Positions 31,967-55,130 of a DNA stretch of 64,000 bases are shown here, piece after piece. Under the pieces are notes generated by a model. The model was not told the DNA's origin. It did no database searches and worked only from the letters and a program-made list of their open reading frames with translations. Origin of the DNA: Thermoplasmata archaeon (GTDB taxonomy: Archaea; Thermoplasmatota; Thermoplasmata; Lutacidiplasmatales; UBA184); NCBI GenBank assembly GCA_022750435.1, contig JAKIVS010000010.1, forward strand, positions 3,912-67,911, given 5' to 3'. The stretch's first letter is position 1. Every line of letters begins with the position of its first letter. Position numbers and translations under genes: made by a program.

Positions 31967-32893
31967 TCAGAACGGTCGCACTCCGAGGGCGGAGAGCCAG
32001 AAGTTCACGATCAGCACGACGATCACCGCGAGCAGGTACGGTCCCGAGCCGATGAACGCGCGCAGCGCGACCGGCTTATCGAACCGTTTCCAAAGCGGGA
32101 TCGCGAGGAGGAGGTAGACCACGGACGCGGCGACGACGGCCACGGCGACCGGCCAGGCGAACGGGGCGACCCAGTCGAGGAGGAGCGAGGCCGGAAGGAG
32201 GAGGGCCGTCGAGACGACCACGACCCGGCCGGAGTAGCCCGGGTCGTCCATCTTCGGGAGCATCGGAAGGCCGACGCGGCGGTAGTCGTCCCGCAGCATG
32301 AGGGCCAGGCTCCAGAAGTGGGGGGGCGTCCAGAGGAACACGAGGAGGGCAAACGCGAGGACCGGAACGGTCCAGCTCCCGACCGCGGCCGCGCTCCCGG
32401 CCAAGGCGGGGGCGCTCCCGGCAAACCCGCCGACGACGATGTTCCAGTTGGTGCGGCGCTTCATCACGATCGTGTAGACGACGACGTAGGTCAGGCCGCC
32501 CAGGGCGATCGACAGGGCCGTCAGCGGGTTGAGCCACACATATGCGCCCCCGACCCCGAAGGCGAGGAGCCCCGTGCCCCCGAGGAGGACGCCGCTGCTG
32601 TGCGCAATGCGAGCCCCGGGGAGCGGGCGGCTCTGGGTTCGCTTCATTCCGCCGTCGACGTCGCGGTCGAAGTAGTGGTTCAGCATCGCCGACCCCGCCG
32701 AAGCGAGGCCGCCGGTGAGCACGAGGAGTCCAAGGCGGGTGTAGTCGATGTGGCTCGGCAGCGCGAGGAAGTAGCCGGCGATCGCCACCATCACGATCAG
32801 CGCGGTGATGCCGGGTTTCGTCAGCGTCAGAACGTCGCGCCAGAGCGCCCGCGCGGGAGCAGAGGCGGTCGGGGCCCCCGGTGCTTCGCTCAC
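31967..32893 (-). CDS. ctaB: Protoheme IX farnesyltransferase (heme o synthase)
   Basis: Motifs LTKPGI, NHYFDRDVD..MKRTQSRPLP, YT..MKRRT..NIVVGG and WTPPHFWSL...DDY. Confidence 0.96.
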   Translation of the reverse strand: MSEAPGAPTASAPARALWRDVLTLTKPGITALIVMVAIAGYFLALPSHIDYTRLGLLVLTGGLASAGSAMLNHYFDRDVDGGMKRTQSRPLPGARIAHSSGVLLGGTGLLAFGVGGAYVWLNPLTALSIALGGLTYVVVYTIVMKRRTNWNIVVGGFAGSAPALAGSAAAVGSWTVPVLAFALLVFLWTPPHFWSLALMLRDDYRRVGLPMLPKMDDPGYSGRVVVVSTALLLPASLLLDWVAPFAWPVAVAVVAASVVYLLLAIPLWKRFDKPVALRAFIGSGPYLLAVIVVLIVNFWLSALGVRPF

Positions 32894-32921
32894 GATTGGT
32901 TCCTCGTCCCTCGGACGGCGT

Positions 32922-33497
32922 TCAGGGCTCGGCGGCGCGGGCGGGGGCTCCCGGGTCCCGTTGGCCCGACGGCGCGTCGCCCCGTTGCATCCGGGCGAGC
33001 GTGACGCTCGCCGCCTCTTCGTCGGCCGCGGCTTCCGCCCAATCGGTCCAGAGTTTCGGAATCGACCTCAGGTTGGCCAGGAACGCGATGACGAGCAGGA
33101 TTCCAAGGAGGACCGTGGCGAAGACGAAGTGGAGGAGGACGACCATCGCCTGGAGGTCCGTCACCACTACGAGGCCGCCCAGGAACGCCTGGGCCAGCAC
33201 CAACACCGCCGCCGAAACGGCGAGGCCGCGGAGCACCGGTCGTCGGCGCTCCGAGACGAGCCCGATCAGCGCCATCCCGGCGACGAGGAGACCCGTGACG
33301 AACGCGCTGACACGGTGGCTCCACTCGATGGCCGTCGCGCCGGAGAAGGGAGGCGCGAACGTCCCGTGGCAGCTCGGCCAATCCGGACAGGCGAGTCCGG
33401 CGTTGCTCGCGATGACATTCCCGCCGAGGACGATCGTCACGTAGGTGGCGAAGAACGCGGCGATGGCGAGGAGCCGGAAGATCGTGTGCTTCTCCAC
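32922..33497 (-). CDS. ctaA: Heme A synthase, short single-module type (COX15/CtaA)
   Basis: GLACPDWPSC, EWSHR, QAFLGG and LLH, with four TM helices. Confidence 0.92.
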   Translation of the reverse strand: MEKHTIFRLLAIAAFFATYVTIVLGGNVIASNAGLACPDWPSCHGTFAPPFSGATAIEWSHRVSAFVTGLLVAGMALIGLVSERRRPVLRGLAVSAAVLVLAQAFLGGLVVVTDLQAMVVLLHFVFATVLLGILLVIAFLANLRSIPKLWTDWAEAAADEEAASVTLARMQRGDAPSGQRDPGAPARAAEP

Positions 33498-33506
33498 GGA
33501 CCTCTC

Positions 33507-35201
33507 CTAGGCGGTGACCGGGGACGACTCCGACGTCGCCGCCGCGACCGGCAGGCCGCGGGAGGACGGGAGCGGGGCGGGCTTGGGGCCGGTCATCTGC
33601 GTGGGTGCGGGCTCGCCCCACGGGTCGTCGCTCGTCACGCGGCGGCCGGCGAAGTAGCTGTAGATCATGTTGAAGGCGAACACCAGTTGGCCGAGCCCGA
33701 GGATGAGCGCGCCGACGCTCGAGACGAAGTTCCAGAACTGGAAATTCTCCGTCGGGAGGTAGGTATAGACCCGGCGGGGCAGCCCCTCCGCTCCGAGGAT
33801 GAACATCGGGAACAGCAGCATGTTCACGCCGATGTAGGTCAGGAGGAAGTGGACGTGGCCGAGGGATTGGGAGTACCAGCGCTTGGTCCAGATCGGGTAG
33901 TAGAAGTAGATCCCGGCGAAGATCCCCATCAACGTCCCGCCCAGGAGGATGTAGTGGAAGTGGGCCACGACGAAGTACGTCCCGTGGTACAGGTAGTCGA
34001 TCGGGATCGAGGCGAGCAGGAGGCCCGAGAGGCCGCCGATGACGAAGCCGGTGATGAACGCCACGCAGAACCACATCGGGACCGCCATCCAGATCTGGCC
34101 GCCCCAGAGCGTCGCGACCCAGTTGAACGTCTTCACCGCCGACGGGACGGCGATCGCCATCGTCGAGAGCATGAACACGAACCGGAGGTCCGTGGAAATG
34201 CCGGTGACGAACATGTGGTGTTCCCAGACGGCAAACGAGAGGACCGCGAAGACGCCGAGCGAGACGGCCATCGCCCCGTAACCGAAGATGTCCTTTCTCG
34301 CCAGTTTCGGGAGGACGGTCGAGATGATCCCGAACGCCGGTAACACCATCACGTAGACTTCGGGGTGCGCGAAGAACCAGAACATGTTCTGGTAGAGCAG
34401 CGCTCCACCGAGGGGAGTCCCGTTCGCGGCCGCCAGGATGTGCGTGCCGAAGTTCCGGTCCGACAGGACCATCGTGAGCGCGATCGAGAGGGACGGCAGC
34501 GCGAAGATCAGCAGGACCGAGTTGACCAGCGTCGCCCAGACGAAGAGGGGCAGGTTCCAGTAGTGGACCCCGGGCGCGCGGTGCTTGACGATCGTGACGA
34601 GGAAGTTGATCGCGCCGAGCATGGAGGAGGCGGAGAGGATGTGGAGCCCGAGGATCCACAGGTCGACGCCGTGCGGGTTCGGTCCGTACGCCTGGAGGGA
34701 GAGCGGGACGTAGCCGGTCCACCCGGCGTACGCGTTCGAGAGGATCAGGATGACGCCGGCGGGGGGAATCATCCAGAACGCGATTGCGTTGATCCGGGGG
34801 AGGGCCATCTCCTTCGCCCCGATCATCGACGGGACGAGGTAGTTGCCGAACCCCGCGAGGACGGGCATGATGAACATGAAGATCATCAGCACGCCGTGCA
34901 TCGTGAACAGCGTCGAGTAGACGTCCGGCGTGATGCCGAGCGTCGTCTGGGGGTCGAGCCCTAGGCCCTGGACGAACCCGAGGTCCGTGCGGATCAGGAC
35001 GGCGTAGATCCCCCCGATGAAGAAGAAGATCAGGCCCGTCGTGATGTACATCAGACCAATGCGCTTGTGGTCGGTGGTGAACAGGTAGAGCTTCGCCTTC
35101 CGGACGAACCAGTCGCCGTGGTAGCGGAGGACGAAGAGACCGAACCCGGCGAGCGCGAGAATGATCGCGAGTTCGGCGATGGGTCCTGCGAGGTCGTACA
35201 T
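33507..35201 (-). CDS. coxA: Heme-copper oxidase subunit I, type A1
   Basis: [36 protein letters not shown]-channel VPSAVK, VVAHFHY and GLPRR. Confidence 0.97.
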
Positions 35202-35216
35202 CGGTTCTCTCCCCTC

Positions 35217-35615
35217 CTACATCAGCAACTGGGCCACGACGTAGGCGGCGCCTCCGAGGGCGGCCGCGACCACGAGCCAGCTCAGCAGGGTCGCCGTCCC
35301 CGACGGGGTGACCGGGCCCGGCGTGGCGGGCCGGAACCGGCGCCCGAGCGGCCAGGACCGGTAGGTCCGGTCCACGAGGTGGACGAGCATCGCCCCCATC
35401 GTGAACATCGCCGCGACGGCGAGCCCGAAGGAGGTCTCGACCCCGGTCCCGACGAGGGCCCCGAGTCGGACGACGTAGACGAACAAGCCGACGATGCCCG
35501 CGATCATCAGCACGATGATCGCGTAGTAGAGCCGGAGCACCCGGGCCGCGGTCTCCGCGCGGTGCGCCTCGACGAAATCGACGCCGGGGTCGGAGGGAGC
35601 GGGGGTCTCACTCAA
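35217..35615 (-). CDS. Three-TM membrane protein in the Rieske/cytochrome b/oxidase operon
   Basis: Three hydrophobic helices and an HLVDRTYR motif. The TTG start at 35615 overlaps the upstream stop. Confidence 0.7.
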   Translation of the reverse strand: MSETPAPSDPGVDFVEAHRAETAARVLRLYYAIIVLMIAGIVGLFVYVVRLGALVGTGVETSFGLAVAAMFTMGAMLVHLVDRTYRSWPLGRRFRPATPGPVTPSGTATLLSWLVVAAALGGAAYVVAQLLM

Positions 35616-35874
35616 AGAGCCGCACCTCCCGGTGAGGGACGCCGCGGAGCCGGTCGACCCGGTAGAGGATCCCGGTGAGGAGGAGCATGGCGATGGAGGC
35701 GACGAACGCGCCGCCCACGAACGCCGGCACGTCGAGGAGCCAGTTGCCGGTCGCGAACAGTTGGGTGAGCCCATAGACGACGAACGCGGCGGCGACGGTG
35801 CCGATCAGCAGGAGGATGGCCAGGACCCCCCAGAGCCAGCCGGTCCGGTACTCCGTCTTGGTCGGGTCAGTCAT
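35608..35874 (-). CDS. Two-TM membrane protein in the Rieske/cytochrome b/oxidase operon
   Basis: MTDPTKTEYRTGWLW..., two TM helices and a YRVDRLRG tail. It overlaps the cytochrome b stop. Confidence 0.75.
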   Translation of the reverse strand: MTDPTKTEYRTGWLWGVLAILLLIGTVAAAFVVYGLTQLFATGNWLLDVPAFVGGAFVASIAMLLLTGILYRVDRLRGVPHREVRLFE

Positions 35875-37213
35875 GCGCTCGCGCCTCCGCAACGGCGGGC
35901 ATCGAGGTGCCCGTAGGGTAGGCGCCCGGCCGCTGGGCCCCCATTCCGCTCTGCGCGGCGAGGCGGGCGCGGTAGCTCTTCTGATAGCGCCAGTAGAACA
36001 GACCGACGAACAGCGCGTTGAACGCGAACAGCGGGCCGAGCCGCTCCGCGACGAGCATCGGGGAGATCGACACGCCCGGCGTCAGGCCGCCCCAGACCGT
36101 CATCAGGACGAACATCTCGAGCAGCGAGCTCCCGATGAACAGGAACACGGGCCGGTCCCGCGGGTGAGTGCGCTTCGAGCGGTCGAGGAACGGCAGGAAC
36201 AGCACGTACAGGATGATCACCGTCGTCACGCCGACCGCGATCACCGGCGTGACCCCCTCGAAATCGACGAGCTTGAACACCCAGAGGAAGTACCAATCCG
36301 GTTCGGTGACCACCCCCGCGGCGCTCAGGTCCCCCGCGTAGGTCGGAAGGGTCCATGGCCAGAGGGCGGCGAGGCCGAGCAGGAGCCCGATGTAGAGCAG
36401 GGCCCACTTGGTGATGTAGAAGAGAATGTGGGGCATGAACGGAACGTGCTTCTTGTCCTCCTCCTCAGTGAACCGCCGGCGCTGGAGCGGGTCGGAGGTC
36501 GCCGGCGGAGCGATACCGTGCGACTCGAACAGCGCGATGTGGGCGTAGAGCAGCGCGCCGAGCGCGAGCGGCAGCAGAAGGACGTGCGCCGCAAACATCC
36601 GCGATAACAGACCTTGTCCGGTTCCGTCGGAGAGGATCAGGGGACCGAGGAGCGGCCCGGCGTAGGGGAGTCGGATCGCCAGGACGAGGCCGACGTTGGT
36701 CGCGTTGAGGGAGATCTGCGTGTACGGGAGGAGGTAGCCCGTGAACCCCATGCCGAGGGTCACAAGCATGAGGAGCGAGCCGACCATCCAGGAGAATTCC
36801 CGGGGGGCTTTGTAGACGCCGAGGTAGTAGCCCCGGTAGAAGTGGACGAACGCGAGGAAGATCATCGCGTACGCGCCGTAGAGATGGGTGGACAGCAGCA
36901 GCTGACCCATCGGTACGGAATGGATGATGTAGTACGTGCTGCACCACGCGGCCGGCGACGAGGACAGCGTCCCGGCGGCCTGGCCGCACGCCGTGTAGGT
37001 CGGGTTGACGCTCGGCTGGTAGTACAGCAGCAGCAGCAGGCCGGAGATCACCTGGTAGAGGAACGCGTTGACGACGAACGCGCCGGTCCAGTACGACGGC
37101 TTGAACGTGAACTCCGGTTGCGGTCGGAGCGCCCACTTGGGCATCCCGGTCCGGTCTTCGACGAACCCCCAGACCTGGTTCAAGGTCCGGTTGAACCAAC
37201 GCTCGAACCCCAC
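35867..37213 (-). CDS. Cytochrome b of a Rieske/cytb complex (fused b6 + subunit IV type)
   Basis: QVISGLLL..YY, heme His pairs (STHLYG...VHFYR and AAHV...YAH), GFTGYLLP, Qo motif EPDWYF and PFLDRS. Confidence 0.95.
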   Translation of the reverse strand: MGFERWFNRTLNQVWGFVEDRTGMPKWALRPQPEFTFKPSYWTGAFVVNAFLYQVISGLLLLLYYQPSVNPTYTACGQAAGTLSSSPAAWCSTYYIIHSVPMGQLLLSTHLYGAYAMIFLAFVHFYRGYYLGVYKAPREFSWMVGSLLMLVTLGMGFTGYLLPYTQISLNATNVGLVLAIRLPYAGPLLGPLILSDGTGQGLLSRMFAAHVLLLPLALGALLYAHIALFESHGIAPPATSDPLQRRRFTEEEDKKHVPFMPHILFYITKWALLYIGLLLGLAALWPWTLPTYAGDLSAAGVVTEPDWYFLWVFKLVDFEGVTPVIAVGVTTVIILYVLFLPFLDRSKRTHPRDRPVFLFIGSSLLEMFVLMTVWGGLTPGVSISPMLVAERLGPLFAFNALFVGLFYWRYQKSYRARLAAQSGMGAQRPGAYPTGTSMPAVAEARAHD

Positions 37214-37226
37214 CTCGTCCCCTCCC

Positions 37227-38039
37227 TTACACGATGTTGCAGAGGCGGATCGGCGTCTGTTGCGAGAGCTGGCTCGAGTTCCCGACCGGGTAGTCGCCGC
37301 TTAGCGTGTCGAGGTGGCCGTTGACCGGCGGCCCGACTTCGTTGACCGCGTAGATCGTGTCGTCGGTCTGGTCCCACTCCAGGATCACCTGGGGAAGCGG
37401 CAGGACGGCGGGGCCCGTCAGGTTCGAGGCCCCATTCGTGACGTCGTAGGTCGACCCGTGGCAGGAGCAGTGGATGTAGAACGCCTTCCCGCCGGGAGTC
37501 TGCGGGCAGGTTCCCGCCGGGTAGTACGAGATTGCGGGCGCGGGGCAGCCGAGGTGCTGGCAGATCGCGCTGAACGCGACGATCGACTTCTGGGTCCCGA
37601 TCCCGTTCAGGACGTTGGTCGCCCCGCTCCCGGACGAGGCACCCGAAGCGGGGGCGACGTTGATCAGGAAGTTGGGTTCGTTACGGAGGGGGTAGTTGAA
37701 CGTCAGCACCGCGTTCGTGTCGGCGTTGTACTCCTTCTCGACCTTGGTGACGGTCAGCGGGGTGCCGTCAAGATCGAGGAGCTGGACGCGGGCGTAGCCG
37801 GTCGCCCCGATCATGGGAGGCTGGGCGTACTGCAGCGAACCTCCGACGAGGCCGCCCCCGGCCGCGCCAACCACACCGGCGGCGACGAGCAGCTTCAGCA
37901 CGTTGCGTTTCGTCTCGTCGACCTCGCCCGTGGCGACCGGGTTCGCCGGGGCAAGCCGTCGGAGCTGGCCGACCGGAAAGTCGAGCGCCGCGGCGGGGGC
38001 TGCGACGAACGGACACGTGGAGGGGCAGTCGAGCTCCAT
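37227..38039 (-). CDS. Rieske [2Fe-2S] protein with Tat-type anchor
   Basis: Rieske boxes CQHLGC and CSCHGS.Y, LTGPA..PLP, and a TKRNVLK Tat-like motif followed by a hydrophobic helix. Confidence 0.95.
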   Translation of the reverse strand: MELDCPSTCPFVAAPAAALDFPVGQLRRLAPANPVATGEVDETKRNVLKLLVAAGVVGAAGGGLVGGSLQYAQPPMIGATGYARVQLLDLDGTPLTVTKVEKEYNADTNAVLTFNYPLRNEPNFLINVAPASGASSGSGATNVLNGIGTQKSIVAFSAICQHLGCPAPAISYYPAGTCPQTPGGKAFYIHCSCHGSTYDVTNGASNLTGPAVLPLPQVILEWDQTDDTIYAVNEVGPPVNGHLDTLSGDYPVGNSSQLSQQTPIRLCNIV

Positions 38040-38224
38040 CAGAGCGTCCTCCCGCGGGTGTCGATCTCCATGTCGTCCGCCGATCCCGCCGCGGGGATGG
38101 CCGCCTCGCCAGGGAGCTCCGCGCGGTCGCTCCCGTAGAACGCCGCCCAGGTGATCCCGAGGCCGGCGAAGATGAGGAGGATCTCGACGAGGGTGATCTG
38201 GTCGTCGATGGAGAGCGCGCTCAT
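38039..38224 (-). CDS. Small single-TM protein coupled to the Rieske gene
   Basis: 61 aa with TM helix ITLVEILLIFAGLGITWAAFY and start/stop overlaps on both sides (ATGA and TGATG). Confidence 0.7.
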   Translation of the reverse strand: MSALSIDDQITLVEILLIFAGLGITWAAFYGSDRAELPGEAAIPAAGSADDMEIDTRGRTL

Positions 38225-38598
38225 CGGAGTCCCGGACCCTCCAGTCCCGCGCCGGGAGTCGCCACCGACCATCGGTCGGGGCCGATCCCGAAGGAGCTCG
38301 CGGAGACCGAGGCGAACGCCGCGACCGGCGGCGTCGTCACGGCCACGGGGATCCCCGGCGTCTGCGAGCCGTCGTCGTACCCGAGGAGCGCCCCGCGGAA
38401 GGAGAGGACGTTCCCGTTCCGTGGGGACGGCAGGTCGGCGGCCCGGGTCAGCTCCCCGAGCAGCTCCTGCTTCAGCCGGACGAACCGACCGTAGTAGCGG
38501 CCGAACTGGCGGAGGAGGGCCCCGCTTTCGCGGCCGAACAAGAGGAACGCCGCCACGACGACGATGATCATCCAGTCGATGTCGGAGAACAGGGCCAT
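38221..38598 (-). CDS. TatB/TatA-like protein
   Basis: DWMIIVVVAAFLLFG followed by the amphipathic LLRQFGRYYGRFVRLK, immediately downstream of tatC. Confidence 0.75.
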   Translation of the reverse strand: MALFSDIDWMIIVVVAAFLLFGRESGALLRQFGRYYGRFVRLKQELLGELTRAADLPSPRNGNVLSFRGALLGYDDGSQTPGIPVAVTTPPVAAFASVSASSFGIGPDRWSVATPGAGLEGPGLR

Positions 38599-38604: not shown

Positions 38605-39435
38605 TCACCCCGCCACCGCGCTCGGACCGATCCGACGGGCGGTGGACCGGCGTTCCCAACGGCTCGCGAACCACGCCCCGCCGAAGTAGAGGGCGATCAT
38701 CGGCGCCGCGATCAGCAGCATGGTGATGCCCGAGTTGTCCGGAGTGACCAGCATCCCGAAGACGAGCGAGCCGATCACGGCCCCGCGCCAGTGCTTGCGC
38801 CAGGTGGCGGCGCGAACCACGCCGAGTCGGGTGAGGCTGTAGACAAACACCGGCAGCTCGAACACGAGGCCGAAGGCGAGGGAGTAGAGCAAGGCGAACT
38901 GGACAAACTGCTGCACCCCGAGGACGGGGGCGAGGCCCATCGCCGCGACGTACAGGAACAGGAGGCGGAACGTGAGCGGGGTGATGAAGAACACACCGAG
39001 CGCGGTTCCCACGGCGAACAGCGCCGTCGCCGGGAGCCCGATGTGGCGGATCATCTCCCGCTCGTTGCGGCGAAGCGCCGGGACGAGGAACGCGCCGACC
39101 TCGTGGATGATCCACGGCATCCCGAGGATCACGGTCAGCAGGACCCCGATCTCGATCTGGACCATGATCGAGTCGCCGACGCCCACGTTGAGCAGGACCA
39201 CGTTCGAGGGGAGCTCCAGTTGGACGAGCGCCCGGAACGCCTGCGCGGTGACGTTGTAGAAGAGGTTCGGCCAAGGGTACGCGAACGGGATCGTCCGCCC
39301 CAGCAGACGCAGCGGGAACGGCTTCAGCTCGAAGGTGATCAAAAACCCGAAGATCGGCGCCAGCACCATGGCGATGCGGACGAGGCGCCGACGGACCTCT
39401 CCCAGGATGGAGAGGACCTTCCCAATCTCCTGCAT
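38605..39435 (-). CDS. tatC: Twin-arginine translocase subunit TatC
   Basis: EVRRRL, FLVPAL...E, GLVFELPV and VTPD.SG.TM.L...PM..LY, with six TM helices. Confidence 0.95.
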   Translation of the reverse strand: MQEIGKVLSILGEVRRRLVRIAMVLAPIFGFLITFELKPFPLRLLGRTIPFAYPWPNLFYNVTAQAFRALVQLELPSNVVLLNVGVGDSIMVQIEIGVLLTVILGMPWIIHEVGAFLVPALRRNEREMIRHIGLPATALFAVGTALGVFFITPLTFRLLFLYVAAMGLAPVLGVQQFVQFALLYSLAFGLVFELPVFVYSLTRLGVVRAATWRKHWRGAVIGSLVFGMLVTPDNSGITMLLIAAPMIALYFGGAWFASRWERRSTARRIGPSAVAG

Positions 39436-39541: not shown

Positions 39542-39742
39542 CTAGCGGGGGTCCGTCGACGGTACGGCCGTGGCCTTCGCCTGCTCGGCCTTCAGCTCCC
39601 GCTCGACCTCGAGCCGGCCGCGCTTGAACTCTCCAATCGAGCGACCCAGGCTGTGAGCGAGGGCGGGGATCTTGCTGGACCCGTAGAACAGGACCAGTAC
39701 CACGATGCCGATGATCAGCCAGTCGTCCAACGAATCGAACAT
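39542..39742 (-). CDS. tatA: Twin-arginine translocase subunit TatA
   Basis: WLIIGIVVLVLFYGSSKIPALAHSLGRSIGEFKRG. Confidence 0.95.
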   Translation of the reverse strand: MFDSLDDWLIIGIVVLVLFYGSSKIPALAHSLGRSIGEFKRGRLEVERELKAEQAKATAVPSTDPR

Positions 39743-39836: not shown

Positions 39837-40877
39837 CTACGCGGGGGATGCGACGATCGACTCGTTTCCGACCGAGACGGCGCGGTCGACCGCGACCTCC
39901 GCCAACGTCGAGAGGCAGGCGGCGCTCCGCTGCGCGGCGACCGTGGCGGCGTGCAGGCCCGTGCGGCGGGCGGTGACCCCCATCTTGTCCGCGGACTCTC
40001 CGGCGGCGACTCCGAGGGCGTTGAGCAGGGAGTACGCCTCGCAGGCGTCGGCGAGGGACGGCCGGATCAGCGTGTCGACCACCGCTTTCAATCCCACCTT
40101 CAGTTCGCCCAGGTGGAGCCGAAGGGCGGCGGTGTCGGCGGCCGGGCGCTCCCGGCCAGAGTCGAGCAGCTCCGCAATCTCCGAGAGGAGTCCGCCCAAT
40201 TCCTGGAGCGCATGGACCACGACCCGCCACTCGAGGAGCTGCCGGGGGTCCGGGCTCCCAATCCGTCGGGCAAGCGACCAGTCTCGGCTGGCGAGGAACA
40301 GCTGCCGGACCAGCAGGGAGAGAACGCGCTGCGTCTCCTCATCGAGGGATGGAAGCCGCTTCGAGTGGCCCTTGCGGTCGAGGAGCGTCTCCGACTCCTC
40401 GAGGAAGGCGATCAGAATCATCTTCATCCGCTGGACCAGCTGCGGCAGCCCGTACTTCGACGGGTCGATGAAATTCTGGAGGACGATCCGGTTCGGCTCC
40501 TGTGCGACGACCGAGACGCCGATCAGCTTGCGCGCCGCGCTCAGCAGCTCCTCGACCCGCTCCGGCGGGAGGGGCGACTCGCTTCGGATCTCGATGGCGT
40601 CGTGGCCAACGCGGTAGGCGCCGACGATCAGCCGCTCGAGGACGCCGGGCGTGTCGAACGACTGCGCCTGGACCAGGTAGGGGGTTCCGACGACGGCGGT
40701 GCCCGCGACGGGGGCGGGCCGGAGGTAGAGCGTTCCGTCGTCGTTCTGGTCAAAGACGATGAGGTCCCCCGGACGCAGGTTCATCGCCTCCGCCCACGGT
40801 TTCGGCAGCGTGACCGCGATGGAGGAATGTCCGGCTTTCAGGACGCGGCGCTCACGACTCGGGACTCCCCATGCCAT
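39837..40877 (-). CDS. Archaeal AbrB/MazE-PhoU fusion regulator
   Basis: N-terminal RRVLKAGHSSIAVTLPKPWA..NLRPGD (AbrB), then RLIVGAY..GHD.I.I and a helical PhoU-like remainder. Confidence 0.85.
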   Translation of the reverse strand: MAWGVPSRERRVLKAGHSSIAVTLPKPWAEAMNLRPGDLIVFDQNDDGTLYLRPAPVAGTAVVGTPYLVQAQSFDTPGVLERLIVGAYRVGHDAIEIRSESPLPPERVEELLSAARKLIGVSVVAQEPNRIVLQNFIDPSKYGLPQLVQRMKMILIAFLEESETLLDRKGHSKRLPSLDEETQRVLSLLVRQLFLASRDWSLARRIGSPDPRQLLEWRVVVHALQELGGLLSEIAELLDSGRERPAADTAALRLHLGELKVGLKAVVDTLIRPSLADACEAYSLLNALGVAAGESADKMGVTARRTGLHAATVAAQRSAACLSTLAEVAVDRAVSVGNESIVASPA

Positions 40878-41800: not shown

Positions 41801-42064
41801 GTGAAATATCAAGCGACGGACCTCCTTGCCGTCGTGCGCCCGAGGGCCCTCGCTCGCGCGCTCCTCGGGTGGGGCGCCGTCGCTGCATTCGCCGGCTCGA
41901 CGGGGTTCGCCGCGGCGAACCCCACGAACCTCCAGGAGACAACCCCGTTGCTCTGGGTGATGATGGCGATCTCGGTCGCCGGGGCGATCGTCACCTACGC
42001 CTTCCTCGCCTACGCGATCTGGCGCTACCGCGACCCGCATACGAAGGGGCGGCGCTATGGATAG
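41801..42064 (+). CDS. Cytochrome oxidase subunit II N-terminal fragment (signal peptide + TM1)
   Basis: A signal peptide ending in AAA, then LLWVMMAISVAGAIVTYAFLAYAIWRYR, which is typical of CoxB helix I. Confidence 0.75.
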   Translation: MKYQATDLLAVVRPRALARALLGWGAVAAFAGSTGFAAANPTNLQETTPLLWVMMAISVAGAIVTYAFLAYAIWRYRDPHTKGRRYG

Positions 42065-48240: not shown

Positions 48241-48269
48241 CGTGGGGCCGAGCCGCGCGACACCCGGCG

Positions 48270-48288
48270 GCCGTAAGGCGCCTTCGAC
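48270..48288 (-). promoter_or_regulatory. Shared upstream motif (BRE/TATA-like) of giant gene A
   Basis: GTCGAAGgCgCCTTACGGC is 17/19 identical to 54035-54053 and lies 30 nt upstream of the ATG. Confidence 0.6.
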
Positions 48289-48293
48289 CGTCG

Positions 48294-51200
48294 TCAGGGC
48301 TCTTCGGCGGGCTCCGGCGTCTCGTACACGGGCAGCAGTTGCTCCGCCTCCGGGTCCTCCGGAGGCGCTCGACCGCGACCCGACCGCACGGCGATCACGG
48401 CCGCCACTCCCACCGCGACCACGCCGCCCACGATCACGGCGAGCTCCTCGAGGGGGATCCCCCCGGCTCCTTTCCCGCTCGGTACGGGCACGAGCGACAC
48501 CGTCGTGTAATTCCCCGCCACTCCCGTCGACACTGTCACGTTCGCGGACTCGAACCCGGGCGCCGACACCGAGACGTTGTACGTTCCCGGGCCCGTCCCG
48601 AATGTGAACTCCCCGTTGGCGTCCGTCGAGCGAGTCCCTTCTCCCCGGCCCGTCGTCGTCCACAGCGTCACCGACGCCGCGGTCAGCGGGCGTCCCGTGG
48701 CGGCATCCACGACCACGCCGCGGAGCGGGACCTCGGTGCGCGGGAGGGCGATGTTGTGCTGGACGGAGGCCCCCGCGACTTGGATGGGGACTCGGAGCGT
48801 TCCGTACTGGATCGTCCCGTTGGTTGGGTAGCTCGCCGTTAGCGTCGTCGTTCCGTTGGGGAGTTGCAGGCGGAAGGCTCCGTTCGCATCGGAGCGGGCC
48901 ACCACCGTGCCGTTGTTGGCCAGCGCGACGCCGGCCAGAATGCTCCCGGAGTCTCCGTCCGACGTAACGCCCGTCACGAGGTAGGTCATCGTCGCCAAGG
49001 CGAAGTTCACCCCGGTCACGTTGGAGTGGACCATCAGCGTCGTGTTCTCGGACCGGTAGTTCGGCTCCCCGACGATCACTTCCACGGTCCCCCAGCGCAC
49101 CTCGAACCGGTAGGCACCTCCGCCGCCGCTCACCGCCTGAGCGACGCGGCCGCCGCCCTCCTCGGCGACGACGAGCGCGTTGGGGAGGCCGGTTCCCGTG
49201 GCGGCCGCCGTCACGACCCCGCTGACGTTCTCGAACACGTCGGGCGGGATCGGGGTGAGCACGATCGGGCCCACGTCGACCGTCCCTCCGGAGACGACGT
49301 CCACCACGACCGACGTGTCCAGGTAGCCCGCGGCCGACACGGTCAGGTCGCTCGGTCCCGGGGAAGTGGAAAGCGCGAACGAACCGTTCGGCGGCGTCAG
49401 GGCCGCCGCGGTGCACGGGCCCGCGTAGGTCGGGCAGGGGAGTACGGTCGCGTTGCTGAGGGGGACCGACGAGGTGTTCACGACCTCGCCGAGCAGGATG
49501 CCGAACGATTCCAGGAACAGGGTGCCCACGTACAAGTTCGCCCCCGGCCCGACGACCAGGAGGAACCGAGATGCGTTGTACCCCGGCGCCTCCGCGTAGA
49601 GGTAGTACGTCCCGGGAGGGGTTTGGATCGAGAAGGTACCGTTCGCGTCGGTGACCACCGTTTCGTCGGCGAGGCACCCCCCCGGCGCGCTGAACTTCGA
49701 GCAGAGGCTGACGTTCACCCCCACCATCAGTTGGCCGTGCGGCAGCGCCCGCACGAGCCCGTGGACCGTCCCGAAGGTGAACACCGGGACGTTCCCGAGC
49801 TCGGTGAACGAATCCGGCGTGACGTTCACCAGCTTCGAGATGTTCGAGAGGTAGAGGTCCGACTGCACCGACACCTGGTCGAGGCCCGCGGGAGCGGCGA
49901 TCCAGAACACGCCGGTGGCGTTCGTTTCCACGGCGTTCGTGCAGGAGAGGTCGGTCACGGCGCAGACCACCACGTTCGCGTACGGGACCGACACGTTCCC
50001 GGGCTCGGCCGTGACGGTGCCCGCGAGGAGTCCGTTCGCGGTGAGATTGAGCTGAGGCTCGACGACGTCGCGGCCCGCGGTAAAGTTGAAATTTTGGTTG
50101 ACCGGGGTGAACCCGAGGGCGGAGAAGGTGACCGTCGCGTCGGGCGAGGGCACCGCCTCCACGAAGTACTGCCCGAGGTCGTTGCCGAAGGCGGGGAGCG
50201 AGTTGACGCCGCCGGGGGCGTTCTCGACAACCTCCATCGCGTCGACCGGTCGTCCGGTGAGGTTGTCGAACCCGCCCGGGACCGGGGGAACTCCGTCGGT
50301 GTTCACCTCCCGACTTCGGAGCGTCGCGAAGCCGCCGTTCGGGAGCGCCGTGAGGTTGATGGTGCCGATCGCGTCGGTGACGCCGCTCACCACGTCGGTC
50401 AATCCGGTGTACGTCGCGTAGGCGACCGCGCCCGTCGAGAGGGCGTCGGCGCCGGGCGGGGCGGTGACGTTGACGAAGCCGAGACCGTTCGAGTCGGCAG
50501 AGCCGCTCAAGGTCACGTTGCCCGGCCCCCCGCCGAGGACATTCAGGGCGATCCCGAGAAGGGGGGCGTGAGTCACGGCGTCCTGCAACGTCGCCGTGAC
50601 GAAGCCGAACCGGGCGACCGTCAGGTTCGGGCCCGGCACGACGAGGCCCGGTTGGATGATTCCGGAGTAGGGGGTCGAGGTTCCCGGGACAAGTCCGGAC
50701 GCCGTGCCCGTCGCTCGGACCCCGGTCCAGCCGTCGGGGAGGAACCCGGCGTAGAACCCCGCGCCACCGATCCAGTAGCCCGTCGCGCCCCCGACGATCC
50801 CCGGAGCATTCAGGGCGTAGACGGCGAACGCCGCGGGTGGGATCGCGCTGCCGACCGACTCGTGGATGTTCCCCGTGAGGCCCCCGAGGATCTTCAACGC
50901 GACCGAGTTTCCGGGTCCCGAGCCGTTGAGGGTGGTGAGCGGCGTGGAGACGTCCACGGCGAGGGCCGTTCCGTTGTAGCCGTTCATCGTGTTCCCGTAC
51001 TGTCCGGCGGGACCGCCTCCCACGATGCGAAGGGTGTCCGGGCTCCCCGCGGGGGCGCTCAGGTTGAACGAGCCGTCGGAGGAGGTGCTGGCCAGCGGGC
51101 CGCAGAGCAGGGAGGGAGTGCAGGCCGTCAGGGCGACGCCGTTCGCCCCTTCTCCGTCCAGCCCGAACAGGGATTCCCACGGGTCGATGAGCACGCGGCC

Positions 51201-54002
51201 GGTAATGCGGTCGAGCGGAGCGATCGCAATCGCACCGAGGTCGACCGTTCCAGCGCTGGAGGCGTTCAGGTAGACGGAGTGGGCCACGTAGTGCGACCCG
51301 TTGATCCAGATCTCGTACGCCCCGTGCACGGTGGAGAGGTTGAACTCCCCCCCCGTCAGGGTCTGGAACGAGCTCAGGGCGCATCCCGCGGAGGCGACGA
51401 CCTGGCACACGGTGACCTCGGCGTTCCCGACGCCGAGCCCGGAGACCGAGTCGACCGCGCGACCGATGACCCACGAGCCCGTCGTGGGCGACGAAGAGTT
51501 CGCGGCTCTCGGCGAGAGAGGTCCGAGCTGCGCGCCGCCGACCGTGCCGACCGGCGGCATCCGGATCGTCGGGATCTGGACGAACCCGCCCGGCGTGACG
51601 TTCACGAAGGTGGCCTCGGGGTCAAAGCCCGAGGCGGTGGCCAGGAACTCGAACGTCCCGGCGGGGAAGGGGAGGGCCGGTACGGTCCCGTTGTAGGTCC
51701 CGTTGGAGCCGGAGGTAGATGGACCCTGGTAACACGGATGCGGGTACGCCACGTTGCAAAGGCTGAGCGTCGCCTCGAGGACCGGGTCGCCGGTCACCGA
51801 CGAGACCACCTGGCCGCCGAACGACGCCACCGCGGCGACTTCGATGAGGCCGGTACTGTTGTTCCCCGTCACGTCGACCCAGCTCGTGTTCGCCCGGTAT
51901 CCCTCGCCGGCCACCGTGACGACGTCCCAGCCGAGCGGCGCGACCGAGGAGAACGCATCGCTCGTGGAGTTGGTGATCGCGTAGTCGCAGGACCCCTCGT
52001 CCCCGGCCGGACAGACGCTGACTCCCAGGTCCCACCCGTACGGAGGGGCGTAGGAGGCAGGCGCCCCCTCGAGGCCGAAGGTGCCCGTCACCTCGCCGCC
52101 GCCGCTCGTGAACCGGAACACGCCGTCGAGGGGACCGAGGTTGGTCGGTCGATCCTCCTGGGAGCAACAGCCGAACGGGACGGAGATCCAGGTCGAGTTC
52201 CGGGTCCCGCCCCAGGTGACGGTCACTCGGTCCGGCCCCGGCGGGGCCGGGACGCAGAACGTCCAGGCGGCGGTCGGGCAGCCGTCGACCGGCGTGCCGC
52301 CCGGACCGTTCGCGCTCGTCGAGACGGTCGCAAGGCATTCCGAGGCCCGGACGGTGGAGCAGACCTGGACCGTGATGCTCGCCGAGGCGTCGTTGCTTGG
52401 AACCCCGACGGTCCCGTACAAGTAAGTCCCCGCGCTGACGTTCATCGTCCCGACGAACGTGGACCGATCCGGGGTCACGTTCACCCACGTGTCGTTCGTC
52501 AGATTCGCGGACGGGAAGCCCATCACTCCCCCGCTGAACAGGACGGTCGCGACGGGGAATCCGTTCGGCACGTCGTACTGACGTTGGACGACGATGAGGT
52601 CCCGGAGCGGTGGCGCGGGAACGAGTTCGGTGGTGCCGAGGGTGACGGCCGTGCCAACGCAGGAGGGAGGGACGACGCGGCCGTTGACGGACGCGCCCAC
52701 GTTCATGCCGGAGAGCGAGCAGGCCCAGACGAAGAACCCCGGCCCGTCGACGGGGAGCGCGCTCGGCCAGGTGTCGTTCGGGGTTCCCCCGGAGAAGTTG
52801 AGACTGATCTCCACCGAGCCGAGCGGCAGCAGGCGGACGAGGCCGAGGCTCGGCACGCCGGTTGGGTCCGCCGGGACGTTGGCGACCTGGGTGACGTTGG
52901 TCACGTAGCCGCCCGCCGTCACGAGCACGACGCCGGGACCCGCGACGGTCGGGATCGTGAACGTCCCGTTCCCGGCCCCCGAGGGGAGGCACCCGAGGTC
53001 GATCCGGTCCGAGCAGAAATTCGCCTCGGCGGCCACGGGGAGCCCCGTGACGGAGTCGACCACGGTGAGCGAGGCGTTCTGGCCTCCCTCGAGATAGATC
53101 GTCCCGAGATCGACGACCTGCCAGGGGGTCGGGTCGGCGTACGAGGCATTCGGGAGGAACGCCTGGGTCGTCGTGAAGTCGACCTCGATCGGGTACGGGT
53201 CGACGAGCAACGCGAACGATCCGTTCGGAAGCGTGTAGGTGAAATTCGGCCCTGCGATCTGGCCGTCGCGGGAATCGCTGCTGACGGAGACGTTCCCGAG
53301 CGGCGGGCTCCCGGCGAGGTCGGCGAGGACGCGCCCCGTCACGGTCGCCAGGTGGACGAGCAGGACGACGCCGAGGCGCGTGGTCACACCAGGGAGGATC
53401 GTCGGGAAGGTCTTGTTCACCAGGTAGTACGGGTCGTCGCGGAACGTCACCGAGGTGGAGCCGGCCGCGCCCTCGACCACGAACTGGCCCGTCGCGTTGG
53501 TGAATACCGCGGACGTACAGTTCGGACAGCTGGCCCCGCTGGTGTAGACCGACACGTTGGCGATGGGCGTGGCGTGGACGCTGTCCTCGACCGTGCCGGA
53601 CAGCCATCCGAAGCCGCTCGCGGGTCTTGCGGAGAGCGACGGGTGCGGTAGCCCCATCGGTGGCGTGAGGCGGACAGGAGGCGCCCCGGGAGGGGTCGTA
53701 TGGTTCGAGACTCCGGTGGGTGAAAGGAACGAACGGTCGGTGCGGAAGAGCGCGGGAGCGTTGACGACCCGCCCGCCGCCCGCCGACCCGGGGAGACCCT
53801 CAGGAGAATGGGCCATCGGTGCGGCCTCCGCCACCGGGGCGCCCCGGTCGTGCGGCGGAGCCACGGGGACGGGGACGGACCCGGCAAGATTTCCGGGCAG
53901 CGTGAGGACCAGAACGATGAGAACGGCGACAGCGACGAGCCCGCCGGAGGCGACCCGACGCCGCGGCGACCCGGCGCTCGGGCGACAGCAGGAGGCGTCC
54001 AT
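48294..54002 (-). CDS. Giant (~1900 aa) cell-surface protein with carboxypeptidase-regulatory-like repeats, paralog B
   Basis: Collinear with paralog A, with a signal peptide, Cys-pair repeats and a C-terminal TM helix. ATG at 54002 is preferred over GTG at 54026 because of the promoter-motif spacing. Confidence 0.9.
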   Translation of the reverse strand: MDASCCRPSAGSPRRRVASGGLVAVAVLIVLVLTLPGNLAGSVPVPVAPPHDRGAPVAEAAPMAHSPEGLPGSAGGGRVVNAPALFRTDRSFLSPTGVSNHTTPPGAPPVRLTPPMGLPHPSLSARPASGFGWLSGTVEDSVHATPIANVSVYTSGASCPNCTSAVFTNATGQFVVEGAAGSTSVTFRDDPYYLVNKTFPTILPGVTTRLGVVLLVHLATVTGRVLADLAGSPPLGNVSVSSDSRDGQIAGPNFTYTLPNGSFALLVDPYPIEVDFTTTQAFLPNASYADPTPWQVVDLGTIYLEGGQNASLTVVDSVTGLPVAAEANFCSDRIDLGCLPSGAGNGTFTIPTVAGPGVVLVTAGGYVTNVTQVANVPADPTGVPSLGLVRLLPLGSVEISLNFSGGTPNDTWPSALPVDGPGFFVWACSLSGMNVGASVNGRVVPPSCVGTAVTLGTTELVPAPPLRDLIVVQRQYDVPNGFPVATVLFSGGVMGFPSANLTNDTWVNVTPDRSTFVGTMNVSAGTYLYGTVGVPSNDASASITVQVCSTVRASECLATVSTSANGPGGTPVDGCPTAAWTFCVPAPPGPDRVTVTWGGTRNSTWISVPFGCCSQEDRPTNLGPLDGVFRFTSGGGEVTGTFGLEGAPASYAPPYGWDLGVSVCPAGDEGSCDYAITNSTSDAFSSVAPLGWDVVTVAGEGYRANTSWVDVTGNNSTGLIEVAAVASFGGQVVSSVTGDPVLEATLSLCNVAYPHPCYQGPSTSGSNGTYNGTVPALPFPAGTFEFLATASGFDPEATFVNVTPGGFVQIPTIRMPPVGTVGGAQLGPLSPRAANSSSPTTGSWVIGRAVDSVSGLGVGNAEVTVCQVVASAGCALSSFQTLTGGEFNLSTVHGAYEIWINGSHYVAHSVYLNASSAGTVDLGAIAIAPLDRITGRVLIDPWESLFGLDGEGANGVALTACTPSLLCGPLASTSSDGSFNLSAPAGSPDTLRIVGGGPAGQYGNTMNGYNGTALAVDVSTPLTTLNGSGPGNSVALKILGGLTGNIHESVGSAIPPAAFAVYALNAPGIVGGATGYWIGGAGFYAGFLPDGWTGVRATGTASGLVPGTSTPYSGIIQPGLVVPGPNLTVARFGFVTATLQDAVTHAPLLGIALNVLGGGPGNVTLSGSADSNGLGFVNVTAPPGADALSTGAVAYATYTGLTDVVSGVTDAIGTINLTALPNGGFATLRSREVNTDGVPPVPGGFDNLTGRPVDAMEVVENAPGGVNSLPAFGNDLGQYFVEAVPSPDATVTFSALGFTPVNQNFNFTAGRDVVEPQLNLTANGLLAGTVTAEPGNVSVPYANVVVCAVTDLSCTNAVETNATGVFWIAAPAGLDQVSVQSDLYLSNISKLVNVTPDSFTELGNVPVFTFGTVHGLVRALPHGQLMVGVNVSLCSKFSAPGGCLADETVVTDANGTFSIQTPPGTYYLYAEAPGYNASRFLLVVGPGANLYVGTLFLESFGILLGEVVNTSSVPLSNATVLPCPTYAGPCTAAALTPPNGSFALSTSPGPSDLTVSAAGYLDTSVVVDVVSGGTVDVGPIVLTPIPPDVFENVSGVVTAAATGTGLPNALVVAEEGGGRVAQAVSGGGGAYRFEVRWGTVEVIVGEPNYRSENTTLMVHSNVTGVNFALATMTYLVTGVTSDGDSGSILAGVALANNGTVVARSDANGAFRLQLPNGTTTLTASYPTNGTIQYGTLRVPIQVAGASVQHNIALPRTEVPLRGVVVDAATGRPLTAASVTLWTTTGRGEGTRSTDANGEFTFGTGPGTYNVSVSAPGFESANVTVSTGVAGNYTTVSLVPVPSGKGAGGIPLEELAVIVGGVVAVGVAAVIAVRSGRGRAPPEDPEAEQLLPVYETPEPAEEP
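48320..49260. repeat. Near-identical 3' segment shared by the two giant surface genes (copy B)
   Basis: Matches copy A; the last three repeats and the anchor are nearly identical at the protein level. Confidence 0.9.
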
Positions 54003-54034
54003 CGGTGCGTGGGGGCGAACCCGCACGTCACCCA

Positions 54035-54053
54035 GCCGTAAGGAGACTTCGAC
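54035..54053 (-). promoter_or_regulatory. Shared upstream motif (BRE/TATA-like) of giant gene B
   Basis: GTCGAAGtCtCCTTACGGC lies 33 nt upstream of the ATG at 54002. Confidence 0.6.
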
Positions 54054-54068
54054 AGGCGCGCGCCCCGC

Positions 54069-55130
54069 TCAGTGGTGGGGCTTCGGTGCGGGTGGGGGAA
54101 TCCGACCGACCAGCGAGGCGACGAGGGCGAGGAGAATGCCGACCCCGAGCAGGGCGCCGGCCCCGGCGAGCAGCAGCGGTTCGACGATCGCGGTGCTCGG
54201 CGGCGCCACGGACGCGGGCACCGGCACGCCGACATACAGGTAGCCAAACATCCCGGCGGCGAAGTGACCCGGGATCTCGCACAGGTACTGGTAGACTCCG
54301 GCTTGCGGGATGGTGAAGTTCGCCCAGACGACCTGGCCAGGGGTCGTCGGGACGTCGACGCTCGCTGGGGACGGGTGCGCCTGGAAGAACGTCGTGAAGT
54401 TGCCCGGGGTCAGATTCACGTTCGGCAGGCCGACCAGCGACCAGGTGTGGCCGGTCGAGCCGAGGTTCGACACCGCGATGTCGATCGTGACCGGGAAGGT
54501 CGTGGCGTTCGCGCCCAGCGCCGCCGGGACGAACGCGAGTCCGGCGCCCGAGGTCTGTTCGGTGAGCTGGACGCCGGCCCCGGACGCCCCGCCGGTGACG
54601 TTCAAGAAGCCGAACATCCCGGCCTGGAACTGGTAGGCGACGAGGCTGACGAACTCGAAGCTGCTCCCGCTGGCGTTGGCCGGGATCGTGAAGTTGGCCC
54701 ACGCGGAGGTTCCCGGCGCGACCGAGATGTTGGTCCAGGAACCGTTGGCATGGAAGAACGCCGCGAGGGACGTGGGAGACCAGCTCCGGTTCAGAGGGTG
54801 GTTGGCGACCGAGGAGACCGTGAAGGTGTGGGTGAAGTTCCCGGAGTTCGTCAGGTCGACGGCCATCAGGTCGCCGGCCGTCCCGGTCAGGGACGACGGG
54901 TCGAACGCGGGGGCGTCGGTGAGCGTGACGTTCGCCCGGATCGTCGCCGTGCCTCCGCCGGTGGGTCCGCCTCCGGAGGAGAAGGTCCGCGGCGCCGCCG
55001 AAGGCCGTTCGCTCGCGGTACCGACGAGCGCCGCCGCGAGCAGGACCACAAGGCCGAGCGCGGTCAGCGCTTTGGAGAGACGTCTCCAACGCCCGGCGCG
55101 CCCGCTCCGGGGGTATGGAGGGACCGGCAT
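54069..55130 (-). CDS. Two-domain membrane-anchored cupredoxin (one intact and one degenerate type-1 Cu site)
   Basis: Signal peptide; domain 1 is HTFT...FVSLVAYQFQAGM and domain 2 is HTWS...YLCEIPGHFAAGM; C-terminal TM helix. Confidence 0.88.
   Translation of the reverse strand: MPVPPYPRSGRAGRWRRLSKALTALGLVVLLAAALVGTASERPSAAPRTFSSGGGPTGGGTATIRANVTLTDAPAFDPSSLTGTAGDLMAVDLTNSGNFTHTFTVSSVANHPLNRSWSPTSLAAFFHANGSWTNISVAPGTSAWANFTIPANASGSSFEFVSLVAYQFQAGMFGFLNVTGGASGAGVQLTEQTSGAGLAFVPAALGANATTFPVTIDIAVSNLGSTGHTWSLVGLPNVNLTPGNFTTFFQAHPSPASVDVPTTPGQVVWANFTIPQAGVYQYLCEIPGHFAAGMFGYLYVGVPVPASVAPPSTAIVEPLLLAGAGALLGVGILLALVASLVGRIPPPAPKPHH

Follow-up and report, generated by a model that had tools for sequence, protein, structure and literature searches.

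Gene content and organization of the locus

The window analysed here is a stretch of 64,000 nucleotides (nt) from a soil-dwelling Thermoplasmata archaeon of the Lutacidiplasmatales (contig JAKIVS010000010.1, positions 3,912 to 67,911), and our subject is the gene cluster at window positions 31193–55130, which encodes a Rieske/cytochrome b pair, a heme-copper oxidase of the A1 type and two different membrane-anchored cupredoxins, together with two proteins of about 1900 amino acids (aa) each, named giant A and giant B. The source genome (G000) comprises 1.92 Mb in 28 contigs and is 84% complete. Because the G+C content of the window is ~70%, reading frames were picked by third-position G+C, and products were named by their matches to Pfam and NCBIfam profiles.

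Read in the direction of transcription, the minus strand carries cupredoxin 2, giant B and giant A, followed, on the far side of a plus-strand unit, by cupredoxin 1, an AbrB-domain protein, TatA and TatC of the twin-arginine translocation (Tat) system, a putative TatA/B-like protein, a 77-aa protein, the Rieske protein, cytochrome b, proteins of 94 and 121 aa, oxidase subunit I (CoxI), CtaA, CtaB and a 237-aa protein (Table 1). The plus-strand unit, consisting of an 87-aa open reading frame (ORF) and oxidase subunit II (CoxII), is divergent from cupredoxin 1 and convergent on giant A. Every gene listed in the initial annotation of the window, which was made from the sequence alone, was recovered by Pfam matches, NCBIfam matches and translations, so that its inventory stands, but its list did not follow the gene order, in which CoxII lies on the opposite (plus) strand, and its three small unknown membrane proteins give way to five small ORFs (121, 94, 77, 125 and 87 aa, the 125-aa one being TatA/B-like). 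It also let the cluster begin at 31967, and the conserved 237-aa gene just outside that start belongs to the block as well.

Table 1. Positions in the window, strands and identifying features of the genes and motif copies of the locus.
Feature	Position	Strand	Identifying features
Conserved 237-aa protein, final gene of the conserved block	31193..31906	-	Syntenic wherever loci are long enough
Heme O synthase CtaB	31967..32893	-	UbiA 5.6e-45; TIGR01473 cyoE_ctaB 241.4 bits (cut-off 210.3)
Short heme A synthase CtaA, 191 aa	32922..33497	-	COX15-CtaA 67.8 bits (cut-off 29.9), partial profile match
Heme-copper oxidase subunit I (CoxI), A1 type, 564 aa	33507..35201	-	COX1 1.4e-142; HPEVY motif
121-aa membrane protein sm120	35217..35582	-	Conserved in all loci; invariant H..D..YR.WP.GR
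94-aa two-helix membrane protein sm94	35608..35892	-	Conserved across loci
Cytochrome b	35867..37213	-	Cytochrom_B_N_2 6.5e-38; Cytochrom_B_C 1.2e-6
Rieske iron-sulfur protein	37227..38039	-	Rieske 28.6 bits (cut-off 20.3); CxHxGC and CxCHGS boxes
77-aa single-helix protein sm77	38039..38272	-	Syntenic wherever loci are long enough
125-aa protein, putatively TatA/B-like	38221..38598	-	N-terminal helix, then amphipathic stretch; TIGR01411 E 0.025, weak
TatC	38605..39435	-	TatC 4.8e-41
TatA	39542..39742	-	TatA_B_E 2e-12; TIGR01411 56 bits (cut-off 53.9)
346-aa putative regulator with N-terminal AbrB/SpoVT DNA-binding domain	39837..40877	-	MazE_antitoxin/AbrB 1.4e-10; TIGR01439 29.3 bits (cut-off 28.3)
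Cupredoxin 1	40970..41656	-	One type-1 copper domain; N-terminal signal/anchor, C-terminal membrane helix, cytoplasmic tail
87-aa ORF with membrane helix	41801..42064	+	Overlaps the CoxII start (ATGGATAG)
12-nt motif ATATCAAGCGAC, ahead of the subunit II unit	41806..41817	+	One of two copies in the window
Oxidase subunit II (CoxII) with CuA centre	42057..42524	+	COX2 1.8e-20
Giant A, ~1907 aa	42517..48240	-	CarboxypepD_reg 5.4e-63, 7 stretches
Giant B, 1902-1910 aa, built like giant A	48294..54026	-	CarboxypepD_reg 5e-59, 8 stretches
Cupredoxin 2, two cupredoxin domains	54069..55130	-	N-terminal helix (RR motif), C-terminal membrane helix
12-nt motif ATATCAAGCGAC, second copy	55157..55168	-	27-38 nt upstream of the cupredoxin 2 start

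An A1-type oxidase with an apparently split subunit II

An HPEV-type motif is the defining mark of the A1 subfamily of heme-copper oxidases. CoxI, the sole COX1 protein of the genome, carries it within FFAHPEVY, which includes the D-channel glutamate, and H279, P280, E281 and V282 were invariant in 29 sequences. CoxII, the sole COX2 protein, holds the CuA ligands of the subfamily (H, CxxxC, H, M), with H99, C137, C141, H145 and M148 again invariant in 29 sequences. A subunit III, which is usual in A-type oxidases without strictly defining them, was not recovered: COX3 (PF00510) had no match in the source genome, and in the genus sample of 41 genomes (the source genome and 40 congeners, with 13 genomes of high quality) it was matched in a single one (G045), there only partially, and in 0 of the 13 high-quality genomes. 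Since the source genome is incomplete, the absences reported here rest mainly on these 13 congeners and on a published survey.

Throughout the group, subunit II seems to be encoded in two pieces or possibly with a frameshift. All 55 CoxII-bearing loci have a homolog of the 87-aa ORF, without exception shifted by one frame. Its stop codon is overlapped by an ATG in 53 of the 55, and the overlap of stop and start takes the form ATGGnTAR. In a genome of another family (G037), CoxII is encoded by a single intact two-helix ORF. Based on its position and on this intact gene, the 87-aa ORF, which had no match to the Pfam family COX2_TM, is probably the split-off first helix of subunit II, with an uncertain start codon.

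Many congeners carry, in addition, at another place in the genome, a distant second heme-copper-oxidase-like frame that is 28–33% identical to CoxI (loci L026–L032, e.g. G017:C8:13999-15456) and 856–944 aa open where uncut; none was found in the source genome.

Two type-1 cupredoxins and no cytochrome c

The initial annotation saw no c-type heme-binding motif, cytochrome c1 or subunit III in the cluster, and a genome-wide search for CxxCH proteins and maturation genes agreed with it. CxxCH was absent from all 27 proteins in and around the cluster, and among 2117 compositionally plausible ORFs a single motif occurred in 13 and two or more in none. The source genome gave no match to Cytochrom_C_asm, Cytochrom_C (PF00034), Cytochrome_CBB3 (PF13442) or Cytochrom_C1 (PF02167), and neither the cytochrome c1 subunit nor the soluble cytochrome c acceptor of a cytochrome bc1 complex was found in it; Cytochrom_C_asm was matched in 0 of the 41 genus genomes.

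The two cupredoxins both hold the His, Cys, His, Met ligand set of type-1 cupredoxins (PF00127). In cupredoxin 1 the ligands H84, C144, H149 and M153 were invariant in 45 sequences, followed by a conserved C-terminal helix and cytoplasmic tail (EMPPERLGYPEP), and the PF00127 score of 20.0 bits lay just under the cut-off of 21.2, which cupredoxin 2 passed with 24.0 bits. The sole type-1 copper site of cupredoxin 2 is in its second domain, where H228, C284, H289 and M294 were invariant in 39 sequences. Domain 1 (residues 60–180) keeps an invariant H101, while an invariant YQFQAGM replaces the Cys/His loop; this domain would represent a conserved, copper-less or unusual site.

A structural model of cupredoxin 2, with a predicted local distance difference test score (pLDDT) of 82.8, displayed two beta-sandwich domains between two helices, and its fold matched two-domain laccases and NirK (E ~1e-13, template modelling (TM) scores 0.23–0.31). 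Trinuclear and type-2 copper sites lie between domains and are defined by HxH motifs. We rejected a two-domain multicopper oxidase or NirK as the identity of cupredoxin 2, as its only invariant histidines are H101, H228 and H289 and its sequence holds no HxH. Against the sulfocyanin model PF06525 (SoxE), cupredoxin 2 reached 15 bits (cut-off 21) and cupredoxin 1 gave no match, and no sulfocyanin-named NCBIfam family was among the matches at E<=0.05. A weak match of cupredoxin 2 to the NCBIfam copper-resistance protein CopI reached 46 of the 280 bits needed. Within the family, 22 of 23 genomes held the full two-domain form, and only single-domain partial matches were found outside it; one genome of this tally (G143) is unpublished.

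Conservation of the locus and comparison with known systems

Conservation was assessed in two overlapping samples, whose counts are not additive: stretches around CoxI from 10 congeners, 36–40 kb in length (16 kb in G017, at a contig end), and 80 public loci recovered with CoxI as query, all titled Thermoplasmata archaeon or with Lutacidiplasma names except L155 ('bacterium'). CoxI itself was 89–90% identical to that of a public 'Candidatus Lutacidiplasma silvani' locus. The order running from the 237-aa gene through CtaB, CtaA, CoxI, the small proteins, cytochrome b, Rieske, Tat, AbrB, cupredoxin 1, CoxII and cupredoxin 2 to a CBS gene was found in 10 of 10 congeners, nine of whose stretches are longer and run on through SIS, GHMP kinase and XPD genes, and the 80 public loci showed the same gene order wherever they were long enough. 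As the same order recurs in every related locus of sufficient length, the arrangement is not due to chance. A search for CoxI succeeded in 20 of 24 congeners; in all 6 genomes sampled from two further families of the order it found nothing, and among 10 genomes representing other families of the class it succeeded in one.

In some congeners (G010, G007 and G001), a polytopic membrane protein of ~305 aa is encoded between the CBS gene and cupredoxin 2, immediately before the latter. Its homolog in the source genome is on another contig (L158:3801-4733, minus strand), is 42–44% identical and matched no Pfam family at E<=1.

In the SoxM supercomplex of Sulfolobus acidocaldarius, a Rieske/cytochrome b module and a CuA oxidase are linked by a membrane-bound blue copper protein without any c-type cytochrome, and SoxM is a fusion of subunits I and III. 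The present cluster shares the Rieske/cytochrome b pair, the CuA oxidase, the membrane-bound blue copper proteins and the lack of a c-type cytochrome. Despite this likeness, CoxI here has 564 aa and a COX1 domain only, with no COX3 match elsewhere in the genome, the Rieske protein scored 134.7 bits against SoxL2 (cut-off 582.1) and cytochrome b 231.6 bits against SoxC (cut-off 740), making them relatives rather than equivalogs, and the cupredoxins fall below the sulfocyanin SoxE cut-off. The idea of a copper-wired complex III/IV cluster that is analogous to SoxM in its working without being a member of that system, with the blue copper proteins as likely carriers, was thus borne out.

The core of the locus is already known, as it was published for the Lutacidiplasmatales in 2022. 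The description in the main text of that survey (Sheridan et al. 2022, PMC9287336) places complex IV next to complex III, together with haem A and haem O synthesis, Tat, a cupredoxin and six uncharacterized proteins, of which five contain membrane helices, and our gene map matches it. The same text reports no cytochrome c genes in any Thermoplasmatota genome, assigns all coxA genes to the A1 type and proposes the blue copper proteins adjoining complex IV as carriers (PMC9287336). Given that copper-wired respiration without cytochrome c is well established among archaea, and that the locus, the lack of cytochrome c and the blue-copper carriers were all in print by 2022, the cluster is no new kind of system, and its ranking in the initial annotation as the best candidate for one has to be withdrawn. 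By contrast, the main text of PMC9287336 makes no mention of giant surface proteins ('S-layer' occurs 0 times), of a split subunit II or of a two-domain second cupredoxin.

Related wirings have been described in other archaea. Ferroplasma acidiphilum, likewise of the Thermoplasmata, has a sulfocyanin-aa3 complex in which a blue copper protein belongs to the oxidase, with Rieske/cytochrome b present (Castelle et al. 2015, as summarized in PMC8280799); unlike the present locus, that of Ferroplasma is described in the main text of PMC9287336 as of the coxAC type, and Fe(II) oxidation has been reported for its sulfocyanin. A similar wiring is outlined for Cuniculiplasma in the available text of PMC5155288. 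According to the corresponding part of Diamond et al. 2022 (PMC9038741), Rieske/cytochrome b in Ca. Angelarchaeales and Nitrososphaerales is adjoined, in the absence of cytochrome c, by a blue copper protein of one domain, and nirK-like cupredoxins of two domains share loci with electron-transport genes there. These are other orders with other locus layouts, and cupredoxin 2 differs from the nirK-like proteins described there in having membrane helices at both ends, one copper site and no HxH.

The giants resemble surface glycoproteins

Both giants begin with a signal peptide and end in a hydrophobic helix plus a short charged tail. N-x-S/T sequons number 60 in giant A and 59 in giant B, amounting to 3.1 per 100 aa compared with 0.70 in the proteome (4.4-fold), and there are only 4–5 lysines per ~1900 residues. 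Cysteine accounts for 1.35% and 1.47% of residues versus a proteome mean of 0.69%, which puts the giants at about twice the mean and in the 87th–88th percentile, so that calling them Cys-rich was an overstatement. The sole Pfam family above cut-off was CarboxypepD_reg, with one domain near residues 142–222 and a run from ~1257 to 1843, and the unassigned middle resembled the same repeat by language-model features (score 0.94, to be taken as a lead only). A model of giant B residues 540–960 was all-beta at moderate confidence (pLDDT 64.5), and Foldseek matched it to Gram-positive pilins, adhesins, alpha-2-macroglobulin-type domains and the stalk of the surface-layer (S-layer) protein SlaB, the best matches being 6fwv (1.9e-14) and 8qox_B (2.7e-6), with low TM-scores of 0.13–0.21 on the query.

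Neither giant contained CxxCH or a variant of it, a heme or copper motif, or a cupredoxin domain, and the repeated CxxCH or other cofactor domain of an extracellular electron conduit was absent from both. The signal peptide, the C-terminal anchor, the sequons, the beta-sandwich repeats and the lack of a redox motif together suggest that the giants are most likely membrane-anchored surface glycoproteins, with a predicted location at the cell surface. Like pilins, adhesins and the SlaB stalk of Sulfolobus, they would consist of immunoglobulin- or transthyretin-like domains strung together on the cell exterior and anchored at one end; unlike those proteins, they offer no common sequence family beyond CarboxypepD_reg, and the TM-scores are low. 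Their signal peptide, C-terminal anchor, sequon density and SlaB fold match are also compatible with an S-layer. A literature search for carboxypeptidase regulatory-like repeats in archaeal S-layers returned nothing relevant by title or abstract, and the S-layers predicted for the related Cuniculiplasma were not confirmed by microscopy, as stated in the available text of PMC5155288.

Distribution and origin of the giant genes

Most relatives lack a giant at the oxidase locus. Of the 51 public loci that were readable beyond CoxII, 40 show cupredoxin 2 next to it and 11 show a giant; among the other 29 of the 80, neither was detected in 3 (1.7–2.4 kb beyond CoxII), CoxII sits at a contig edge in 2, and 24 were too short for CoxII. 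The congener sample (n=14) has a giant at the site in 2 genomes and none in 12. None of the 10 fetched congeners has one, and cupredoxin 2 is tail-to-tail with CoxII there, while G018 and the unpublished G019 carry a single giant gene exactly between CoxII and cupredoxin 2, and G012 and G021 carry none. The linkage in relatives that the initial annotation had predicted therefore holds for cupredoxin 2, which stays with the cluster in the same 40 loci and 12 congeners and lies beyond the giant in two more, but fails for the giants in most relatives. With giant B as query, 13 of the 40 congeners gave homologs, most of which lay on a different contig from the oxidase or at a distance from it, and 27 gave none.

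A third giant paralog of the source genome lies on contig C4. It has 2072 aa, is 31% identical to giant B and is followed by three further large ORFs of 716, 661 and 1217 aa, whose N-termini resemble signals, and the region (C4:2135-18346) looks like a surface protein gene cluster.

The two giants of the locus are 60% identical overall and nearly identical over the C-terminal ~330 aa. In a tree of the C-terminal 640 residues, from which G024 was left out (match <400 aa), the 15 copies at the site next to CoxII (the cox site) were all separated from a clade of the 9 copies from elsewhere (support 0.98), and giants A and B were sisters with support 1.0; the G019 branch of this tree again comes from the unpublished genome. 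From this tree, the giant gene at the cox site has a single origin and was duplicated in the source genome, and the cox-site giants form one orthologous group confined to part of the genus. A tree of five concatenated cluster proteins distributed the giant-bearing loci over two supported clades (0.983 and 1.0), with a giant-free pair as sister to the group of the source genome (0.997) and a support of 0.4 at the node joining all; the loci L136 and L148 are labelled 'cup2' in it though their junction is unreadable. Because this joining node is weak, the single origin rests on the giant tree, and one gain followed by one loss of the giant gene is the simplest reading. Giant orthologs are 33–51% identical compared with 60–90% for the flanking proteins, indicating that the giants evolve fast. 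The giant lies 42–66 nt downstream of cupredoxin 2 on the same strand, and the two giants are 54 nt apart.

A 12-nt motif ahead of subunit II and cupredoxin 2

The 12-nt sequence ATATCAAGCGAC has two copies in the window, where 0.05 would be expected, and the same two are the only ones in the whole 1.9-Mb genome, with none ahead of the giants. Ahead of subunit II, its 8-nt core was confined to the 3 closest relatives among 56 loci; around the start of cupredoxin 2 it turned up in 10 of 39, and the exact form showed no broad conservation. The motif may be a shared promoter or regulator site, a hint that the subunit II unit and cupredoxin 2 are controlled together and, through the latter, perhaps the giants as well.

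Proposed electron path and alternative explanations

Taking these observations together, we consider it likely that the cluster is a conserved, copper-wired aerobic respiratory locus of the Lutacidiplasmatales and that the giants are surface proteins outside the respiratory machinery. Judging from the established roles of these protein families and from published proposals for related archaea, quinol would be oxidised by the Rieske/cytochrome b complex without cytochrome c1, and the electrons would then pass to one or both membrane-tethered type-1 cupredoxins at the outer face of the membrane and on through CuA of subunit II to heme a, heme a3-CuB and O2, the A1-type heme a oxidase presumably working without a recognisable subunit III. 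The locus would supply heme O and heme A synthesis, an AbrB-type regulator and small membrane proteins, along with a Tat translocase that probably serves the folded Rieske protein and cupredoxin 2. The giant gene would have entered the space between subunit II and cupredoxin 2 a single time, in one branch of the genus, and have been inherited there since. A recent tandem duplication would then have produced the two giants from this gene, whose product would be a fast-evolving beta-sandwich-repeat protein, N-glycosylated and anchored in the membrane at its C-terminus. This analysis thus takes the giants out of the model of the respiratory complex and makes them a clade-specific, fast-evolving surface protein. 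The small new details that it adds are the apparent split of subunit II, an A1 oxidase without detectable subunit III that is accompanied by small conserved membrane proteins, and a two-domain cupredoxin that is specific to the family and has a single copper site.

Several points weigh against this interpretation. An A1 oxidase without subunit III is unusual, a subunit III could be too diverged for detection, and the genome is 84% complete. The cox-site giants are orthologs retained across diverse species, their shared strand and tight spacing mean that they may be co-transcribed with cupredoxin 2, and the position of the only two genomic copies of ATATCAAGCGAC, ahead of subunit II and of cupredoxin 2, leaves room for a functional tie.

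These last points bear on whether the giants work with cupredoxin 2, co-transcribed with it and holding it or an external donor at the surface, as the extra electron-entry or scaffold branch that the initial annotation had envisaged. The close same-strand spacing downstream of cupredoxin 2 in the source genome, G018 and G019, the single origin and long retention of the cox-site copies, and the motif common to the upstream regions of cupredoxin 2 and subunit II all speak for such a role, as does the oxidase-bound sulfocyanin of Ferroplasma, which is reported to oxidise Fe(II) directly (in the relevant part of the review PMC8280799). We nevertheless find this very improbable, because the giants carry surface-glycoprotein features and neither a redox motif nor a cofactor domain, the full respiratory cluster is present without a giant at the site in 40 of the 51 readable relatives, 27 of 40 congeners yielded no homolog with the giant B query, and the giant paralogs elsewhere have no cupredoxin neighbour; moreover, an inserted gene would persist by inertia where gene order is frozen across the genus. 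We give similarly little credence to the idea that joint function has long kept the orthologous giant glycoprotein of one Lutacidiplasmatales branch downstream of the two-domain cupredoxin, as a surface scaffold for the cupredoxin or for an insoluble or metal donor from acid soil. If true, a scaffold giant would feed an extra electron-entry branch into an oxidase with no subunit III and a split subunit II.

A different division of labour would leave cupredoxin 1 alone to link the Rieske protein to CuA, with one cupredoxin, most likely cupredoxin 2, either taking in electrons from an external donor, for example Fe(II), or handling copper. That two different cupredoxins are conserved side by side is in keeping with such a division, as are the restriction of the full-length two-domain protein to the family, its weak CopI match and the precedent of the Fe(II)-oxidising sulfocyanin of Ferroplasma, as given in PMC8280799. 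Yet the cultured Cuniculiplasma and Picrophilus carry such genes and show no iron oxidation, according to the available text of PMC5155288, and cupredoxin 2 stands tail-to-tail with subunit II in most genomes, so that we regard this division as unlikely while taking it seriously. The pair of giants, finally, might be an assembly artefact, for instance strain variants placed in tandem, in view of the nearly identical C-terminal ~330 aa and of a contig from run X1 that joins 42856 to 48646 and skips 5789 bases, exactly one giant unit, within the C-terminal repeat. This join reflects either a one-giant variant in the population or an assembly-graph shortcut. By contrast, a contig from run X3 bridges the giant B/giant A junction (48219–48587) and another contig bridges the CoxII/giant A junction (42434–42763), both with no mismatches, and the giants are only 60% identical overall, which leaves an artefact with a very slim chance. 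We therefore retain the reading of a conserved respiratory locus into which a surface protein gene was inserted and later duplicated.

Small conserved proteins and predicted export signals

The 237-aa protein had no Pfam or NCBIfam match, and a profile of 31 homologs found nothing in PDB; profiles of sm120 and sm94 likewise found nothing there, the best E value of the three being 0.35. No family in Pfam or NCBIfam matched sm77, and searches of the small proteins against Pfam at E<=5 gave chance-level matches only. A complex prediction of CoxI with sm94 and sm120 gave a score of 0.03 and a mark of 0.32 with sm120 as partner. Encoded between cytochrome b and CoxI, sm94 and sm120 both have two helices and, after them, a ..VDR..R..P..R motif, and comparison of their profiles indicated weak similarity (hhalign E 0.038, probability 1.4%). 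The small membrane proteins of the locus are probably accessory subunits. The AbrB-domain protein is 61–86% identical in relatives.

With respect to export, an RR motif was flagged in 35 of 39 cupredoxin 2 sequences by a crude regular expression applied to stop-to-stop frames, a noisy count that serves as a hint only. The Rieske protein has a conserved N-terminal signal, ..DETKRNVLKLL.., in which the KR is conserved.

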